DNA from: Armatimonadota bacterium
GTDB taxonomy: Bacteria; Armatimonadota; SYMT01
Assembly (NCBI GenBank): GCA_046292385.1
Contig: JBKBRF010000016.1
Coordinates: forward strand, 32,001 to 96,000
Reading direction: 5' to 3'
Length of the DNA stretch: 64,000 nucleotides
In this document: in pieces, positions 3,830-45,804 of the stretch
Layout of the letters: each line of letters opens with the position of its first letter
Numbering within the stretch: position 1 is the stretch's first letter
Program-made: the position numbers and the translations under genes
The notes under the pieces: generated by a model
What the model saw: only the letters and a program-made list of their open reading frames with translations
What the model was told of the DNA's origin: nothing
Database searches by the model: none

Positions 3830-4704
3830 ACGAGCTGCTGATCTTCGCGAACCGCCACGCCGGGGCGCTCTCACGCCTCGGCGGCCCGGCGCCGTTCGAG
3901 CGCTACGCGCGCGCCGCGGGGTTCGAGCCGCGGATCGTGTATACGCGCAACTCCGCCCATCTCCGGCGACTGCTGCGAGAGGAGGTGATTGGAAAGCACT
4001 CGCGGGTGGCGGTGGCCGGGGGCGACGGAACGATGCACTCGGTCGCCCAGGCGCTGGCCGGCACCGAGACCGCGCTCGGGGTGCTGCCCCAGGGCACTGC
4101 CAACAACTTCGCCACGGCGCTGCGGCTGCCGATGGACCTCCCCTCGGCCTTTCGCGTGATCGCGGAGAACCAGGTCCAGCCGGTCGATCTCGGCCAGATC
4201 GGCGACGAGTACTTCATCGAGGCGGCCGGCGTCGGCATCTTCGCGGACATGCTCGCGATCACCGGGGCGAGCCACCGCCTGCGAAACATCGTCCGCGCGA
4301 GCTGGGCCTTTCTCAAGATGATGCTCACCCGCCACAGCCGGCGGGTGCACCTGCTGATCGACGGGGAGCCGTTCGTGGAAGAGGCGTTAAGTGTTACCGT
4401 AGCCAACTCGTTCTGCGTCGGCTACAACCTGCCGATCGCTCCCCACGCGCGCCTCACCGACGGCAAGCTCGACCTGGTGGTGATCGAGGCGCTCGATCGT
4501 CACGAGTGGCTGCCGTACTACCGGGCGATCCGCGCGCAGGTCCACCCGGAGCTGCCGAAGATCCACTACACCCGCGCCCGTGAGGTGCGGATCAACGCCC
4601 GGAGACCGGTACTGGTCCACGTAGACGACCGCGCCTGGCGCCGCACCCCGGTCACGATCCGCGTCGTCCCCAAGGCGCTGAACGTACTCGTGGATCGCCT
4701 TTGA
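3826..4704 (+). CDS. Diacylglycerol/lipid kinase family protein (YegS/DAGK-like)
   Basis: NxxAG, VAGGDGT, LPQGTANNFA, DGKLD motifs. Confidence 0.9.
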   Translation: MNELLIFANRHAGALSRLGGPAPFERYARAAGFEPRIVYTRNSAHLRRLLREEVIGKHSRVAVAGGDGTMHSVAQALAGTETALGVLPQGTANNFATALRLPMDLPSAFRVIAENQVQPVDLGQIGDEYFIEAAGVGIFADMLAITGASHRLRNIVRASWAFLKMMLTRHSRRVHLLIDGEPFVEEALSVTVANSFCVGYNLPIAPHARLTDGKLDLVVIEALDRHEWLPYYRAIRAQVHPELPKIHYTRAREVRINARRPVLVHVDDRAWRRTPVTIRVVPKALNVLVDRL

Positions 4705-5688: not shown

Positions 5689-6120
5689 CTAGCTTCCGGC
5701 GCTCGCTACGCTGCCCTCGAACTCGGTGTGCTCCGTAATCGCCGCTGCCAGCGCTTCGGGGTTCGTCTTCGCGGGATCGTACACCACCTCTACCGTCTGG
5801 GTGGTGACGTCTGCCTTCATCTTCTGGAATCCATCGACCCTGACCAGGGCCTTCTCCACCTTAGGCGGTCAGCCGGCCGGTCAGGTCATGCCCTTCGCGT
5901 TCAGGACTGCGGACTCCATTCCTTCCGGCACTTCCAGGGTGGTGGTGCTGGCGGTCTGCGTCGTGTTCGGCGTCTCCGAGGTCTCCGGCGTGTTCCCCGC
6001 GGGGGAGTTCGCCGCTGACGACTCGGAGGTCTGCGGCTGCTCGGTGGGAGCGCATCCCACCAGGCCGCCGAAGAGGATCGCCGCCGCGCCGAGTGCCAGC
6101 AGGGTCGAGCTCAATCGCAT
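5689..6120 (-). CDS. HMA-domain (MerP/CopZ-like) lipoprotein, putative selenoprotein with two in-frame UGA codons
   Basis: AGGAG RBS, lipobox LVGC, ...NAKGMT-UGA-PAG-UGA-PPKVEKALVRVDGFQKMKADVTTQTVEVVYDPAKTNPEALAAAI... to TAG at 5689-5691; 143 codons. Confidence 0.8.
5836..5851 (-). promoter_or_regulatory. Candidate bacterial SECIS hairpin
   Basis: GGCCCU-GGUC-AGGGUC stem-loop; loop starts 23 and 35 nt after the two UGA codons. Confidence 0.6.
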
Positions 6121-6222
6121 CGTTGCTCCTCTCTGCTTCGCGTCTCGTGTCAAACGAGCTTCCAAGAAGAGTTTACGAGCATTGGCAATTCTTATGACCC
6201 GGGCTGCGGGAGATCGGGAAGC

Positions 6223-6678
6223 TCACTGGTCGGAACGGGCGCCGGCCGGCTTCTCCTGCTCCACGTGCGCGGAGTCTCCGATGTGCTGACCGCCGCTCGG
6301 GTCGAGCTCTCCGGGGCTGCGGGAGATCGAGGCCTTCCGGCTCATCCTGGCGTTCAACGTCTGCAGGAGCAGCTCCGGATTGGTGCGCGCCGGGTCGTAC
6401 ACCACCCGGGCGGTCTCCCGCTCCAGGTCCGCCTTCAGCCCCTTGTAGCCGTCTACCCGCTCCAGGAGCAGCTCCACCCGCTCCGACTCCGCCTTCAGTC
6501 CCGGCACCTTCAACTCCACCACGGAGAGGCCGGGCAGCGTGTTGAGTGCTACGGGACCGGCCGCAGGCTCGGCGGCATTCACGCCCGGTGAGCCCTGAGA
6601 GACGCATCCGCCAAGAGCGGCGGCAGAGAGAACAGCGGCAGAGAGCACGGCAACGGCAAGGGGCTTCCGGAACGACAT
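6223..6678 (-). CDS. HMA-like lipoprotein lacking the CxxC motif (paralogue of 5689-6120)
   Basis: Lipobox LGGC; RVDGYKGLKADLERETARVVYDPARTNPELL aligns with the neighbour. Confidence 0.75.
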   Translation of the reverse strand: MSFRKPLAVAVLSAAVLSAAALGGCVSQGSPGVNAAEPAAGPVALNTLPGLSVVELKVPGLKAESERVELLLERVDGYKGLKADLERETARVVYDPARTNPELLLQTLNARMSRKASISRSPGELDPSGGQHIGDSAHVEQEKPAGARSDQ

Positions 6679-6774: not shown

Positions 6775-8271
6775 CTACCGGGTGACGGCAGGCTCGGGCT
6801 GGAGCTGCTCCTCGTCTGCCGCAGCCTCGGGAGCCGCCGGGAGGCGCACGCGGAAGGTGCTGCCGCGGCCCGCCTCGCTGTCGACCGAGATCTCCCCGTC
6901 GTGCGCTTCCACCGCCCACCGGGTAATGCTGAGCCCCAGGCCCGCGCCGCCCGCGGTGCGCGCGCGGCCCTCGTCCACCCGGTAGAAACGGTCGAAGATG
7001 TGCGGAAGATGCGCTTCGGGGATGCCGATCCCGGTGTCGCGCACTTCCAGGAGCGCGGTTCCGTCCTCTCGGCGCAGGCTTACGGTCACCGTGCCGCCCG
7101 CGGGCGTGTACTTGATGCCGTTGCTCACCAGGTTCACCAGCACCTGGCGGAGCCAGAGCGGGTCGCCGGAGATGGTGACGTCGTCCACCTCCTCGAACTC
7201 CACCATCACCCCCTGCCGGCGCGCCAGCGGCTCCACGTCTTCCACGGTCGCCACCGTGAGTGAGGAGAGCTCCACCGGCTCCCGGCGGATCAGCGCCTGG
7301 CCGGAGTCGGCGCGAGCGAGGAGCAGCAGGCTCTCCACCACCTCCGACATCCGCTCCGCGGAGTCGAGGATCGTCCGCAGGGAGCGCTGGTACTCCTCCG
7401 GCGAGGCAGGACGGCGCAGCGCCACTTCCGCCTCGCCGCGGATCACCGTGAGCGGGGTCTTCAGCTCGTGGGAGGCGTCGGCACTGAACTGACGCACCTG
7501 TTGAAAGCTGCGGTCGAGCCGCGCGATCATCTGGTCGAATGCGCGGGCGAGCCTGCCGATCTCGTCATCCGCGCCCGGGTGCTCGATACGGCGCCGGAGA
7601 TTGCTCCCCTGGATGTCGAGCGCGGTGCGGGTGAGGTCGTCGACCCGCCGGAGCGTGCGCCCGATCACCAGCCAGTTGCCTGCCAGCGCCAGCAGGAAGA
7701 CGAGCGGTGTCAGCAGGATCAGCACCCAGCCGGCCCGCTGGAGCGCCGCCTCCACCCCCTCCAGAGAGGTCCCCGCCTGGACCAGGAACGGGATCCGCTC
7801 GCCCATGCGCACCGGCACGGTCACGATCCGGACCGGGTGCTCGGCCAGGCCCGGGATCGTCTCGATGGTGGTCAGCCCCTGGAGCCCGCGGCGCAGGGCG
7901 TCCGGCGTCACCGGGAGCGGGTGGCTGTTGAGCCCGTCGGAGCGCTCGTAGACGTTTCCCTGCGGATCGACCACCTGCACGTACCGGCCCCACGACCGGA
8001 GCTCGTTGGTGAGGAAGAACGGCTGCCCGGCCTCGGCGGCGCGCGGGGTAAAGGGCCGGCCGGTCATGGCGGCCTGGGTCTCCAGGCGGTAGAGCCGGGT
8101 GGCGATCTGCCGCGCGCTGGCGTCTGCGTGCTCCCGGAGCGCGGCATCGGCGCGGGAGTGGAGCACGCCGATGAGGAGGACGTACGTCAAGCCGGCCAGC
8201 GCCACCAGCGTGAGCGCCATCAGGCCGGCGTGCCACGCGCAGAGCTGCGCGCGGAGCCCTCGCAGCCTCAC
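6775..8271 (-). CDS. Sensor histidine kinase (HAMP-HisKA-HATPase; CusS/CzcS-like)
   Basis: Two TM helices, FSADASHELKTPL, NLVSNGIKY, DTGIG, FDRFYR, GAGLGL; GTG start overlaps the regulator stop. Confidence 0.92.
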   Translation of the reverse strand: MRLRGLRAQLCAWHAGLMALTLVALAGLTYVLLIGVLHSRADAALREHADASARQIATRLYRLETQAAMTGRPFTPRAAEAGQPFFLTNELRSWGRYVQVVDPQGNVYERSDGLNSHPLPVTPDALRRGLQGLTTIETIPGLAEHPVRIVTVPVRMGERIPFLVQAGTSLEGVEAALQRAGWVLILLTPLVFLLALAGNWLVIGRTLRRVDDLTRTALDIQGSNLRRRIEHPGADDEIGRLARAFDQMIARLDRSFQQVRQFSADASHELKTPLTVIRGEAEVALRRPASPEEYQRSLRTILDSAERMSEVVESLLLLARADSGQALIRREPVELSSLTVATVEDVEPLARRQGVMVEFEEVDDVTISGDPLWLRQVLVNLVSNGIKYTPAGGTVTVSLRREDGTALLEVRDTGIGIPEAHLPHIFDRFYRVDEGRARTAGGAGLGLSITRWAVEAHDGEISVDSEAGRGSTFRVRLPAAPEAAADEEQLQPEPAVTR

Positions 8272-8945
8272 GCCGGCCCCTCCTTCAGCATGTAGCCGAC
8301 GCCGCGGACCGTCTGCAGCAGCTTGCGGTCCGACTTCGCGTCGACTTTCTTCCGCAGGAAGTTCATGTAAACCTCGAGCACGTTCGACGGGGTCTCGAAG
8401 TCGTACCCCCACACCTGCTCCAGCAGCTCCGCGCGCGTGAGAACCCGCTCGGGGTTGCGCATCAGGTACTCCAGCAGGGTGTACTCCTTGTTCGTCAGCT
8501 CGATCCGCTTTCCGGCGCGGGTGGCGGCGCGCGTGGCCGGGTCGACGGTCAGGTCGGCGTAGGCGAGCGCCGCCATCCGCGCCGCGGTGCTGCGCCGGAG
8601 CAGCGCCCGCAGCCGCGCCTGGAGCTCCTCGAAGGCGAACGGCTTCGGCAGGTAGTCGTCGCAGCCGGCGTCGAGCCCCTCGATCCGGTCGTCCAGCCCG
8701 CCGCGGGCGGTGAGGGCCAGCACCGGCGTGTCCTGCTTGCGCCGCCGCAGCTCCCGCACCACTTCCAGGCCGTTGATGCCCGGAAGCATGATGTCGAGCA
8801 CCACCGCGTCGTAATGACTCGCCGTCAGGTGCTCCAGCGCGTCCTCGCCGGTGTGGACGACGTCGACCTCCAGCGAGTCGGCCTGGAGCCCCCGCTGGAT
8901 CAACGACGCCACGCTCACCTCATCTTCAACTACGAGAATTCGCAT
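8268..8945 (-). CDS. OmpR-family response regulator (CusR/CzcR-like)
   Basis: MRILVVEDE, LDIMLP, DDYLPKPF, LLQTVRGVGY. Confidence 0.95.
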   Translation of the reverse strand: MRILVVEDEVSVASLIQRGLQADSLEVDVVHTGEDALEHLTASHYDAVVLDIMLPGINGLEVVRELRRRKQDTPVLALTARGGLDDRIEGLDAGCDDYLPKPFAFEELQARLRALLRRSTAARMAALAYADLTVDPATRAATRAGKRIELTNKEYTLLEYLMRNPERVLTRAELLEQVWGYDFETPSNVLEVYMNFLRKKVDAKSDRKLLQTVRGVGYMLKEGPA

Positions 8946-9151
8946 CTCTTTTCTCACTCGACGCGATACTGCTCCGATGCGCCACCCTGGCGCGGCCAGG
9001 CACCCTCACCCGCGTGTGCTCCTCGCGGCGCCCGGACGCCGGGCCCTGAAGGACCCGGCTGTCTCTCTGGAAAGCACCCTGAAGGGCGCTAATCGAACCA
9101 CAGCCCCCGCACAACGTTCTCCCCGTCTCCCAGTCCCTCTGTCTCTCCGTC

Positions 9152-31531: not shown

Positions 31532-32266
31532 ATGGAGATTCGTGGAAGAACCGCCCTGGTCACCGGCGGCGCCGTGCGGGTAGGGAAGGCGATTGCGCTG
31601 GAGCTGGCGCGCCGTGGGATGCACGTGGGGATCACCTACCGCAGCTCCGCGGCGGAAGCGGAGAGCACCGTCGAAGAGCTGCGCGCGCTGGGCGTTCAGG
31701 CGCATGCGGAGCGGTGCGAGCTCCGCAGCCCGGAAGAGATCGAGCGCGCGGTCCGCGGGATCGAGGCCGCGCTGGGACCGGTCGACGTGCTGGTGAACAG
31801 CGCCTCCATGTTCGAGCGGACTCCCCTCGCGGAGGCGTCGCTCGACGATTGGGACGCGCACCTGGAGACGAACCTCCGCGCCCCGTGGCTGCTCGCCAGG
31901 GCGGTCGGCCCCGGCATGGCGGCCCGCGGGGAGGGGGTGATCGTGAATATTCTCGACGTGGCGGCGGAGCGGCCGTTCAAAGACTACACCCCCTACTCCG
32001 CCAGCAAAGCCGGCCTCGCGTCGGTCACCATGGGCCTGGCGCGGGACCTGGCGCCGCACGTGCGAGTGAATGCCGTCGCCCCGGGGGCGGTGCTCTGGGG
32101 CAAGCACGCGAACGAAGAGTACCGCCGCTCCGTCCTCGCCAAGACGCCGCTCGGGCGCGTCGGCAGCGCGGAGGACGTGGCGCGCGCCGTCGCGTTCCTG
32201 GCGGAAAGCGGCGACTTCATGACCGGCAGCACCATCACCGTCGACGGAGGCCGCCGGCTCGTCTAA
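31532..32266 (+). CDS. SDR oxidoreductase, pteridine reductase/FolM-like
   Basis: TGGAVRVG, NSAS, YSASK, VNAVAPG, VDGGR. Confidence 0.85.
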   Translation: MEIRGRTALVTGGAVRVGKAIALELARRGMHVGITYRSSAAEAESTVEELRALGVQAHAERCELRSPEEIERAVRGIEAALGPVDVLVNSASMFERTPLAEASLDDWDAHLETNLRAPWLLARAVGPGMAARGEGVIVNILDVAAERPFKDYTPYSASKAGLASVTMGLARDLAPHVRVNAVAPGAVLWGKHANEEYRRSVLAKTPLGRVGSAEDVARAVAFLAESGDFMTGSTITVDGGRRLV

Positions 32267-44073: not shown

Positions 44074-45315
44074 ATGGCGCGAGTGAGCGTGTGGGTGCGA
44101 GTGGCAGGCCTGGTCGCCGGAGCGGGGCTCCTCGCGGCGGGCGCGGCGCGGGCGGAGGACTGGCCGCACTGGCGCGGTCCGCGCCGCGACGGGATCTCCC
44201 GGGAAGCGGGCCTGGTGAAGAGCTGGCCGGCCTCCGGCCCGAAGATCGCCTGGGAGAAGGATCTTACCGGAGGATGGTCGACCCCGAGCGTGGTCGGCGG
44301 CAAGCTGTACGTCACCACGGAGGACAACAAAGAGGAGATCGTCCTCTGTCTCGACGCCGCCACCGGCAAGCCGGTCTGGGAATATCGCTATCCCTGCGAT
44401 TACGACCAGCATCCCTCGCTCGACCAGCGCTTCAAGAGCGGTCCGCGCTCCTCCCCCACCGTCGATGACGGCCACATCTACACCCTCGGCACCACCGGGC
44501 TCCTCCACTGCCTGGACGCTGCCAGCGGCAAGCCGGTGTGGAAGACCGACCTGCTGGCAATGGCAAAGACGGAAGCGCCGATCGCCGGCTACTGCAGCTC
44601 GCCGATGATCGAGGGCGACACCCTCTACGTAAACCCCGGCGGCGCCGGGACTTCGGTTGCCGCGCTGAACAAGAAGGACGGCCGCGTGCTCTGGCAGACC
44701 GGCGACGACGCGATGGGCTACGCCACGCCGGTCCTGCTGGAGAGCCAGGGAGTGCGGCAGGTCCTCTACTTCACCGGCGGCGGCCTCGTCTCCGTTTCGC
44801 CCACCGATGGGAAGCCGCTCTGGCGGTTCGACTGGAAGACGCCGTTCGATCTGAACGTCGCTACGCCGATCCACCACAACGGGGAGGTCTTCATCTCCAC
44901 CAACTATGGGCGCGGCTGCGCGCTGCTGCGGCTCAAGGGCGCGGCCCAGCCGGAAGAGGTCTACCGCAGCGCCAACATGCAGAACCACTTCGCCACGTCC
45001 GTGCTCTGGGACGGCCACCTCTACGGCCTGAGCAACGACCGCCTCCGCTGCGTGGAGTGGGCGACCGGCGAGGTGAAGTGGGACCAGCGCGGCATCGGCC
45101 GGGGCAGCGTGATGATCGCGGACGGCCAGCTCATCATCCTGGGCGAGCGCGGCGAGCTGATCCTGGCGGAGCTCTCCCCCATCGCCTTCACCGAGAAGGC
45201 TCGCTGGAGGGCACTCAACGCCCCCTGCTGGTCGCCGCCCTCCCTGGCGAACGGCCTCCTTTACATCCGCAATGAGGACAAGTTGATCGCCGTCGACATG
45301 CGCGCCGGACAGTAG
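44074..45315 (+). CDS. PQQ-binding-like beta-propeller protein
   Basis: Signal peptide, DWPHWRGP, CLDAATGKPVW repeats. Confidence 0.9.
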   Translation: MARVSVWVRVAGLVAGAGLLAAGAARAEDWPHWRGPRRDGISREAGLVKSWPASGPKIAWEKDLTGGWSTPSVVGGKLYVTTEDNKEEIVLCLDAATGKPVWEYRYPCDYDQHPSLDQRFKSGPRSSPTVDDGHIYTLGTTGLLHCLDAASGKPVWKTDLLAMAKTEAPIAGYCSSPMIEGDTLYVNPGGAGTSVAALNKKDGRVLWQTGDDAMGYATPVLLESQGVRQVLYFTGGGLVSVSPTDGKPLWRFDWKTPFDLNVATPIHHNGEVFISTNYGRGCALLRLKGAAQPEEVYRSANMQNHFATSVLWDGHLYGLSNDRLRCVEWATGEVKWDQRGIGRGSVMIADGQLIILGERGELILAELSPIAFTEKARWRALNAPCWSPPSLANGLLYIRNEDKLIAVDMRAGQ

Positions 45316-45804
45316 GTTGCAGGTTGGCAGGTTGCAAGTTCCAGGTATGCCGACCGCTTGCTGTGCTACGCGCCGTGAGAATCTAGTCGGGACGCGCAGC
45401 TTCTGCGCGGGGAGTGCTCCTAAGGAGCCCGGAAGCGCTGCCGGAGGCAGGGCGGGAGGGCTTCACTTGTGACCACCCCTCGGGAGGGGTGGTCGCTTGA
45501 GCCGCCCGGAGCGGCCCGTGAACCGTCGTCTCGCTGGAGACGCCCCTTTCGGACGCGGAACGCAGCGCGCCGGGGAGCACGCCCGCAGCGCCCGCTAGCG
45601 CAGGCGAAGCCGGAGCGTGAAAGGGCCGTGGAGGGCCCCCCACGTGGGAGGGCCGCTCCGGGTGGGGAGGGCGCGGGGTGGACGCCCGGAGCGATGACGG
45701 TCTCGCCCAGAGAATCTTTCTCCCGCCGCAGTGAGTTTGGTTCCGGCATCGGCCGCGCTCTGGTTCTCACCTGCAACCTGTCAACCTGCAAACCTTCAAA
45801 CTAC
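45314..45804. repeat. CAGGTTG/CAACCTG inverted arms (45314-45346 / 45769-45804) enclosing structured element D
   Basis: AGGTTGCAGGTTGGCAGGTTGCAAGTT ... ACCTGCAACCTGTCAACCTGCAAACCT. Confidence 0.75.
45426..45750 (+). repeat. Structured dispersed element, copy D
   Basis: Collinear with the reverse complement of 4761-5084. Confidence 0.85.

Follow-up and report, generated by a model that had tools for sequence, protein, structure and literature searches.

In a 64,000-nucleotide stretch of the genome of an Armatimonadota bacterium, hereafter the window (positions 32001–96000 of contig C16 in the source genome G000, which holds 7.04 Mb in 91 contigs at 69% G+C), the minus strand carries at positions 5689–6120 a gene whose reading frame contains two closely spaced UGA codons. 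Comparison with homologous genes shows that the gene is whole and that both UGA codons are conserved and exchange with cysteine codons; on this comparative evidence it is very probably a genuine doubly recoded gene. Its product is most likely a membrane-tethered, exported, MerP-like HMA protein in which both metal ligands would be selenocysteine (Sec, U). A mechanistic model follows, in which SelB with Sec-tRNASec would recode both UGA codons, recruited by a single selenocysteine insertion sequence (SECIS) hairpin at positions 5836–5851 that lies in the accepted range of both codons. The protein would hold a soft metal between two selenolates outside the cytoplasmic membrane, and an adjacent heavy-metal-type two-component system would control the gene. 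Taken as a whole, we hold this combined model to be reasonably probable.

Reading through both UGA codons, the gene comprises 143 codons and a TAG stop (positions 5691–5689), as established by direct reading, translation of TGA as U, an HMA profile match, and homologs. The start codon, ATG (6120–6118), is preceded at a distance of 5 nt by a Shine-Dalgarno-like AGGAG (6126–6130). The N-terminal part of the product reads MRLSSTLLALGAAAILFGGLVGC, a predicted signal peptide (residues 1–23; 6052–6120) that ends in a lipobox, L-V-G-C, at residues 20–23, with Cys23 (6054–6052) as the predicted lipidated residue. The bacterial lipobox follows the pattern [LVI]-[ASTVI]-[GAS]-C; the assignment here was made by eye without a predictor, and comparable [LIVFS]-x-G-C boxes occupy the same place in the homologs. 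A linker of ~45 residues, rich in Thr, Ser, Pro, and Glu, separates the lipobox from the C-terminal half, which reads ...NAKGMT-U-PAG-U-PPKVEKALVRVDGF...VEVVYDPAKTNPEAL...AGS. The first UGA codon (UGA1; codon 80, 5881–5883) directly follows G-M-T at the first metal-ligand position, and the second (UGA2; codon 84, 5869–5871) lies 12 nt further at the second metal-ligand position, furnishing the metal loop G-M-T-U-P-A-G-U-P. Ordinary open reading frame (ORF) calling reports instead a stub that ends at KGMT, 79 aa long from the ATG (94 aa if an upstream TTG is taken as the start), together with a second, downstream ORF of 56 aa at 5689–5859.

The preliminary description of this locus, made from the sequence alone, had proposed a hidden gene with these coordinates, this motif, and a downstream hairpin, and direct reading together with the TGA-to-U translation bears out all of these elements. 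Its proposal that the frame past the TGA codons encodes an intact HMA fold also holds: with C written for U, the read-through protein matches Pfam HMA (PF00403) across residues 73–130 (5731–5904) at 42.2 bits against a cut-off of 24.8 (E=1e-10). An AlphaFold2 (AF2) model of the domain, computed with C for U from an alignment of 11 rows, displays the β-α-β-β-α-β fold at a pLDDT of 96.3, with strands at 3–10, 32–38, and 43–48, helices at 18–26 and 55–65, and a final strand. Foldseek matched this model to 31 solved HMA chains at E≤0.001, the top match being MerP of Ralstonia metallidurans (1osd_A; TM 0.87, E=6.2e-7), followed by domains of ATP7A/B, CopZ, and CopA.

The preliminary description had further placed both TGA codons at the Cys ligand sites of a GMTCxxC motif, and this stands in part. 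Both codons do occupy the metal-ligand columns, but the second does not sit at classical CxxC spacing: the classical G-M-T-C-x-x-C loop, with ligands two residues apart, is replaced here by G-M-T-U-P-A-G-U. Every solved chain in the printed profile alignments has C-x-x-C where the U-P-x-G-U family has C/U-P-x-G-C/U, and the loop is therefore one residue longer in this family; the solved chains that are one loop residue shorter in the HMMER alignments are ATP7B, a second P-type Cu(I) ATPase, and Bacillus CopA.

Conservation of the two UGA codons

To survey homologs we used a search that reads through stop codons, applied to a family of seven genomes that includes the source genome and to a phylum set of 401 genomes. 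In the family, five of the seven genomes (G000, G002, G003, G004, and G005) carry TGA at both positions, in proteins of 44–75% identity whose downstream frame is open and HMA-like, which upholds the earlier argument that the two TGA codons are not chance nonsense mutations. The sixth genome, G001, has Cys at both ligand columns (GMNCQGSCD, that is, C-QGS-C) in a 121-aa lipoprotein that is present in protein records as P0076. The order ASPIC/FG-GAP protein, response regulator, histidine kinase, HMA lipoprotein is shared by G000, G005, and G001, and judging from this gene order the Cys/Cys protein is a true ortholog. The seventh genome, G006, yielded no match at E≤1e-8 in the family search. A profile search of 1.84 billion protein representatives was swamped by multi-HMA proteins and returned one useful match, the same P0076.

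Across the phylum set, eight places in seven of the 401 genomes carry TGA at both ligand positions, including members of two other families (G385 and G293). Nine further places carry TGA at the first ligand alone, six of them as U-P-x-[GS]-C and three as classical U-x-x-C; a tenth one-TGA row, in G276, was dropped because its TGA lies outside the motif. First-ligand TGA is invariant among the U/U and U/C relatives, and the second ligand is Cys in G007, G338, G010, G038, G272, G244, and the loci L191–L205. Metagenome relatives were collected by a peptide pattern that required Cys as the second ligand and so by design reaches U/C and not U/U forms. Neither the nine single-TGA places of the phylum survey nor 17 metagenome relatives include a Cys-first/Sec-second form.

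A DNA-motif scan for G-M-x-U-P-x-G-U-P over one genome per species returned at least 120 loci. Among the 120 matches listed, 19 read through into an HMA-like domain and 101 do not; again among the matches listed, four of the 19 coincide with the records of G002, G003, G004, and G385, most of the 19 have a lipobox, and one, L090, is a MerT fusion. The rest of the 19 comprise at least one Chthonomonadales locus, at least 11 Planctomycetota loci, and at least two Myxococcota loci (Haliangium and Kofleriaceae). One Planctomycetota locus, L072, looks frame-broken downstream. HMA-type models match 11 of the 12 loci scanned at E≤1e-5.

Taken together, TGA/TGA, TGA/Cys, and Cys/Cys pairs are found at exactly these columns and the C-terminal part is conserved, as the preliminary description would predict. 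The in-frame TGA codons are conserved along with the sequence on both sides of them, and Cys-containing homologs align at both TGA positions; each of these is a comparative signature of a selenoprotein gene. Sequencing error is excluded: contigs from runs X2, X3, and X9, which belong to three other studies, cover positions 5869–5883 with zero differences and show TGA, rather than TGC or TGT, at both sites. A contig from an RNA library (run X13) covers 5888–6135 with two differences and ends 5 nt before UGA1, and is silent on transcription or read-through.

The exchange between Sec and Cys can be followed at close range. Numbering the RNA from the U of UGA1 as nt 1, loci L191–L193 differ from the U/U gene of G385 (L033, on contig C23) across nt 1–56 solely at nt 15, where UGA is replaced by UGC or UGU; L194 differs also at nt 51, and overall the four loci are 89% identical to the G385 gene. 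As the RNA is otherwise the same in G385 and L191–L193, the second Sec was therefore gained or lost without touching it, and by this comparison the set represents a recent Sec/Cys switch in which the downstream RNA is frozen. Elsewhere in G385, positions 4072–4275 of contig C58 (L051) hold a second copy of the U/U HMA domain that is identical to the C23 copy across the domain but departs from it on either side, and so is either a fragment that was duplicated or an artefact of assembly. The Planctomycetota locus L093 has a second HMA-like repeat that reads ...FHVTGMKKTKSGAT and is followed by an in-frame TGA where its relative L057 has Pro; this TGA may specify one more Sec, in a degenerate loop.

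Selenocysteine machinery and the hairpins downstream of the UGA codons

Sec insertion presupposes a dedicated machinery, and selA, selB, selC, and selD were all found in the source genome, in line with the preliminary description. The selA match scores 486.8 bits; selB scores 367.5 bits against a cut-off of 242.25 and resides on the same contig ~25 kb before the window; selD scores 362.3 bits and has its own in-frame TGA, marking it as Sec-containing. The single tRNA-Sec (66.6 bits) adjoins selD and selA, and each of the five relatives tested (G001–G005), the Cys/Cys genome G001 included, likewise has one strong tRNA-Sec. The genome also holds 11 Redoxin/AhpC-TSA-type genes, each interrupted at a UxxC-type site by a single in-frame TGA, with hairpins downstream of it; they lie on contigs C17, C14 (two), C18 (two), C6, C22, C41, C4 (two), and C13. 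In 9–10 of the 11, the loop of a 6–8 bp hairpin, (A)GUU or GGC in sequence, starts 16–17 nt after the UGA. As judged from these genes, the genome is very selenoprotein-rich and its SECIS spacing is tight in the Redoxin type, and because eleven such genes carry an in-frame TGA and hairpins, the selenoprotein trait is evidently in heavy use.

Two genome-wide scans were performed. A scan for GGUC-loop hairpins gave five candidates, of which only one looks real: a candidate selenoprotein with the motif GSFTUP on contig C1 (plus strand, TGA at ~280484), where a 6-bp hairpin with a GGUC loop starts 17 nt after the UGA. A scan for an in-frame TGA with two-sided coding signal and hairpins gave 582 candidates that were mostly noise at 69% G+C and were dropped.

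Downstream of the two UGA codons, the RNA of the window gene can form two hairpins. The distal one, hairpin B (5836–5851; nt 33–48; GGCCCU-GGUC-AGGGUC over codons (K)ALVRV), has six pairs, one of them G-U, and is the SECIS candidate. From the A of the UGA to the first G of the loop the distance is 23 nt for UGA2 and 35 nt for UGA1, and the six pairs, the GGUC loop, and both spacings agree exactly with the preliminary description. The loop of the Escherichia coli fdhF SECIS likewise holds GGUC.

Several lines of evidence show by comparison that hairpin B appears to be under selection at the RNA level. Across ten Armatimonadota-type genes (eight U/U and two U/C), all 60 of 60 cells are paired, and in three pairs both partners have changed (CG to UA in two of them, GC to CG in the third). 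The covariation score is 0.285 against 0.139 for shuffled alignments, with 0 of 500 shuffles as high, and sliding the partner arm by 1–3 columns drops the pairing to 21–59%. One arm uses the Arg codons AGG/AGA, which make up 2.3% of the Arg codons in the source genome. Upon synonymous recoding, only 0.4% of variants of the source-genome hairpin fold as stably (p=0.004); with the codon usage of G000 applied to all genomes, p≤0.004 was obtained for four of the ten genes and 0.09–0.43 for six.

The bSECISearch consensus, as quoted in PMC13188914, calls for a loop of 3–9 nt, a stem of 4–16 bp, a G at one of the first two loop positions, a spacing of 16–37 nt, and a minimum free energy of at most −7.5 kcal/mol. 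Compared with these quoted constraints rather than with bSECISearch itself, hairpin B satisfies all of them for both UGA codons, with its GGUC loop, 6 bp stem, spacings of 23 and 35 nt, and free energy of −8.8 kcal/mol (mRNA nt 30–51); the preliminary description had anticipated a hairpin in range of both codons.

The proximal hairpin, hairpin A (5856–5868; nt 16–28; CCGCC-UAA-GGUGG over codons PPKVE), follows UGA2 without a gap. The distance to its loop is 17 nt from UGA1 and 5 nt from UGA2, the latter out of SECIS range, and since the hairpin starts directly after UGA2, it cannot serve that codon. The chief alternative to a single SECIS is that hairpin A recruits SelB for UGA1 and hairpin B recruits it for UGA2. 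All 10 of the 10 Armatimonadota-type relatives have a proximal hairpin, in three registers, as do 12 of 12 Planctomycetota/Myxococcota-type genes, which weighs against a lone hairpin. The 17 nt spacing of hairpin A matches the 16–17 nt seen in 9–10 of the 11 Redoxin-type genes and the 17 nt of the C1 GSFTUP gene, and is thus typical of this genome, whereas the 35 nt from UGA1 to hairpin B is atypical; in E. coli, Sec insertion is reported to be sensitive to the spacing between UGA and SECIS. The single-Sec forms of family f5 (G010, G038, G272, and G244) lack hairpin B and have only a proximal hairpin with a GUGU loop, and a proximal hairpin of G369 has AGGUUCG as its loop, at a spacing of 16 nt.

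In the other clade, of Planctomycetota and Myxococcota, the genes have two hairpins after the UGA codons: a distal one over L-P-[WG]-V, with a G-first loop, 91.7% of cells paired, and three compensatory pairs, and a proximal one with 81% of cells paired. Loci with this two-hairpin arrangement (nt 22–60 after UGA1) are L057, L060, L093, L097, L102, L136, L150, L151, L156, L169, and L170, and the U/C relatives L198, L202, and L205 keep both hairpins. The spacings from UGA1 and UGA2 are 47 and 35 nt for the distal hairpin and 25 and 13 nt for the proximal one, with the 47 nt outside the published 16–37 nt. Each hairpin therefore falls within 16–37 nt of one UGA only, and the clade is without any single hairpin in that range of both, a further point for two elements.

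Set against these observations are the properties of hairpin A itself. Its UAA loop carries no G at either of its first two positions and so fails the bSECIS consensus as quoted in PMC13188914; its register varies among relatives, with 64% of cells paired in the register of the source genome; and its stability does not exceed that of synonymous recodings of P-P-K-V-E-K (p=0.64). Two separate elements would also leave unexplained why the GGUC hairpin B persists, with compensatory changes, where genes have the first UGA only: G007 and G338 (35 nt), the UxxC forms G016 and G369 (32 nt), and L191–L194. Being kept in such genes, hairpin B appears to serve the first codon. We consider a pair of SECIS elements unlikely. 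The preliminary suggestion of one SECIS for both UGA codons is the better supported and favoured reading of these comparisons, although a second, proximal hairpin occurs in all relatives; that hairpin B is the only SelB-binding element is, in our estimate, somewhat better than an even proposition.

A role for the proximal hairpin under the single-SECIS reading can be envisaged, in which it would act as a collapsible spacer. With the ribosome waiting at UGA1 and hairpin A folded, the path to the SECIS loop would shorten from 35 nt to ~18–22 nt; four codons on, with hairpin A melted, UGA2 would see the same loop at 23 nt. In the Planctomycetota/Myxococcota clade, folding would cut the 47 nt from UGA1 to 21–28 nt. 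A distal SECIS with a proximal spacer would fit both clades. The full proposal, that a single SelB hairpin recodes two UGA codons 12 nt apart across a collapsible spacer and that the product defines an uncatalogued exported di-selenolate U-P-x-G-U metal-binder family in at least three phyla, is put forward tentatively, as one that is more likely to fail in some part than to hold in all.

Selenocysteine or cysteine, and the genomic context

We infer that Sec rather than Cys is inserted and that one hairpin serves both codons. The rival for the identity of the residue is that one or both UGA codons are read as Cys by a SelB-dependent tRNA-ReC (selC*), giving a CxxxC or mixed Sec/Cys HMA protein. 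It draws on a 2026 report, in which tRNA-ReC-like genes occur in five of five Armatimonadota genomes with UXXU hydrogenases and such UGA codons may be Cys (PMC13582414), a point that counts against Sec here also. Within the source genome it could call on two odd extra tRNA candidates from ARAGORN and on a tRNA-like element with a good T-arm at C52:8260–8358. The tRNA-Sec model, however, finds one strong match per genome in G000–G005, with the next matches being tRNA-Ser or tRNA-Leu, and the C52 element scores 20 bits on that model and is not conserved in the family. No tRNA-ReC was found in the source genome by ARAGORN, Rfam, or the tRNA-Sec model, none of which is a tRNA-ReC-specific model, and no search with such a model was made. 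We judge Cys insertion quite improbable.

As for the candidates themselves, the ARAGORN prediction at C77:16947–17029 was discarded for poor pairing. The other, a 97-nt 'tRNA-Cys(GCA)' at C11:92717–92813, is unseen by Rfam, sits on a repeat, and is absent from six relatives, and was discarded too; it lies 2.8 kb from selA, and its core is a palindromic repeat of ~30 nt with 42 matches in the genome, one of them in the window at ~45314–45340. The C52 element (plus strand) is intergenic, with a canonical T-arm, a 7–8 bp acceptor stem, and no clear anticodon arm, and has no DNA match in the six relatives.

A broken gene, with the UGA codons as ordinary stops (in a pseudogene or through misassembly) and the 79-residue lipoprotein stub as the only product, is hardly credible: callers do stop at the first TGA, and the sole match in a 5.8-billion-protein collection is the window's own 79-aa stub, but three phyla share both TGA codons and, after them, a conserved HMA frame, Cys replaces the TGA codons in the ortholog, three independent assemblies agree on them, and the hairpin behind them carries compensatory changes.

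The genes around the locus, all on the minus strand, speak to its probable regulation. Directly upstream, at 6223–6678, is a paralog, a 151-aa lipoprotein assigned by Pfam HMA and homology, with an HMA-like domain (E=0.057) that lacks both ligand positions; its ligand loop is wholly lost (VPGLKAESERVELLLERVDGY), it ends at a TGA that shares the Sec gene's reading frame, and among the genomes searched it occurs only in G000. Next is a HAMP-HisKA-HATPase sensor histidine kinase (6775–8412, with its true start probably near 8270), followed by an OmpR-type response regulator (8268–8957). In NCBIfam, the kinase is matched best by TIGR01386, for heavy metal sensor kinases (266.7 bits, with the cut-off at 292.55), and the regulator by TIGR01387, for heavy metal response regulators (235.7 bits, with the cut-off at 279.2). 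In other genomes, the U/U gene of G293 stands beside ArsR, a MerT-HMA fusion, and a CMD-family gene, and G007 has its U/C domain in a MerT fusion that follows ArsR and a protein with a CopZ zinc-binding domain. This context points to metals, and the adjacent two-component system probably controls the di-Sec gene. A terminator scan found one site against 1.5 expected, which is no evidence for a terminator.

A soft-metal binding role for the di-Sec HMA lipoprotein is predicted with fair probability, with Cu(I), Ag(I), or Hg(II) as candidates for a metal held between two selenolates outside the membrane. Several considerations temper the overall model. The kinase and the regulator both score just under their curated cut-offs, and no metal transporter or reductase adjoins the gene within the window. 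Sec insertion, the full-length product, and metal binding are all predictions from sequence. An extracellular diselenide would be hard to reduce, which clouds a simple chaperone role.

Relation to known systems and significance

Proteins of the di-Sec HMA type are already catalogued; the U-x3-U lipoprotein form is uncatalogued and falls below every curated cut-off, as the window protein and 12 relatives are all below the cut-offs of NCBIfam. The nearest entry is NF041115 ('UxxU_metal_bind'), a curated di-Sec HMA-type model, and UxxU forms also figure in reviews. NF041115 shares with the window protein an HMA-type domain in which both ligands are Sec and is its top NCBIfam match (E=7.1e-11), but the window protein attains 42.1 bits against a cut-off of 95, and 12 other U-P-x-G-U proteins likewise all stay below it, with 65.3 bits as their highest score. 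Its motif, taken from the model name and review tables, is UxxU, whereas U-P-A-G-U places three residues between the Sec residues. The NF041115 model, compared here without its member sequences, is a bare domain of 74 positions, whereas the window protein has a lipoprotein signal and the ~45-residue linker ahead of the domain.

MerP (TIGR02052; PDB 1osd and 1afi), the periplasmic Hg(II)-binding protein of mer operons, is likewise an exported single HMA domain and is the best structural match, and MerT occurs fused to, or next to, relatives of the window gene. The MerP loop is GMTCxxC, with Cys ligands, whereas the window gene has two UGA codons and a loop one residue longer; the window protein scores 41.7 bits on TIGR02052 and falls short of the cut-off of 92.55. 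MerP is soluble in the periplasm, whereas the window protein is predicted to be lipoprotein-anchored and its neighbours are a CusRS/CopRS-like pair; the ORFs around the gene in the window include no merA, merT, or merR, in contrast to a mer operon. The MerT/CopZ fusion selenoprotein model NF045683 offers another parallel, with Sec at the first ligand of the HMA loop, and the relatives G007 and L090 are MerT-HMA fusions with U-P-x-G-[CU]. The window protein differs in having no MerT or ATPase part and two Sec residues; against the NF045683 cut-off of 375 bits it scores 37.2, G007 79.5, and L090 52.4.

The closest precedent for the decoding comes from an unrelated protein, the UXXU Group 4 [NiFeSe] hydrogenases, as described in the 2026 report (PMC13582414). 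In these, two UGA codons a few codons apart fall in a metal-ligand motif, Armatimonadota are among the hosts, and the SECIS is the same in one-Sec and two-Sec forms, a single downstream SECIS being proposed for both (PMC13582414). A single SECIS for two close UGA codons has thereby already been proposed in print in 2026. The RNA unchanged between one- and two-Sec forms resembles our comparison of G385 with L191–L194. The UGA codons are 9 nt apart in the hydrogenases (PMC13582414) and 12 nt in the HMA gene, and single-Sec hydrogenases are mostly CXXU (PMC13582414), whereas the single-TGA HMA forms (nine in the phylum survey and 17 from metagenomes) are Sec-first. The portion of the 2007 Olavius paper that we consulted holds nothing on two-Sec decoding, and the U-x3-U HMA form was not found in the parts of the selenoprotein literature consulted, where no search was made for the term 'UxxxU'.

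For annotation, the consequence is that a selenoprotein family of Armatimonadota, Planctomycetota, and Myxococcota is invisible in current records, because gene callers stop at the first TGA, only the 79-aa stub is recorded, and no curated model is reached. If the proposed chemistry is true, an HMA loop lengthened by one residue and bearing two selenolates, located outside the cytoplasm, would make a very soft, high-affinity site suited to Hg, Ag, or Cu handling. For mechanism, how bacteria decode two UGA codons separated by only a few codons became a published question no earlier than 2026 (PMC13582414). Nature provides U/U, U/C, and C/C versions of this one gene with the same downstream RNA, and two clades with different hairpin geometry, so that the question of two-UGA decoding becomes directly testable with a short reporter. 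The main value of the gene family would lie in this, as a compact natural system for the decoding of two UGA codons.

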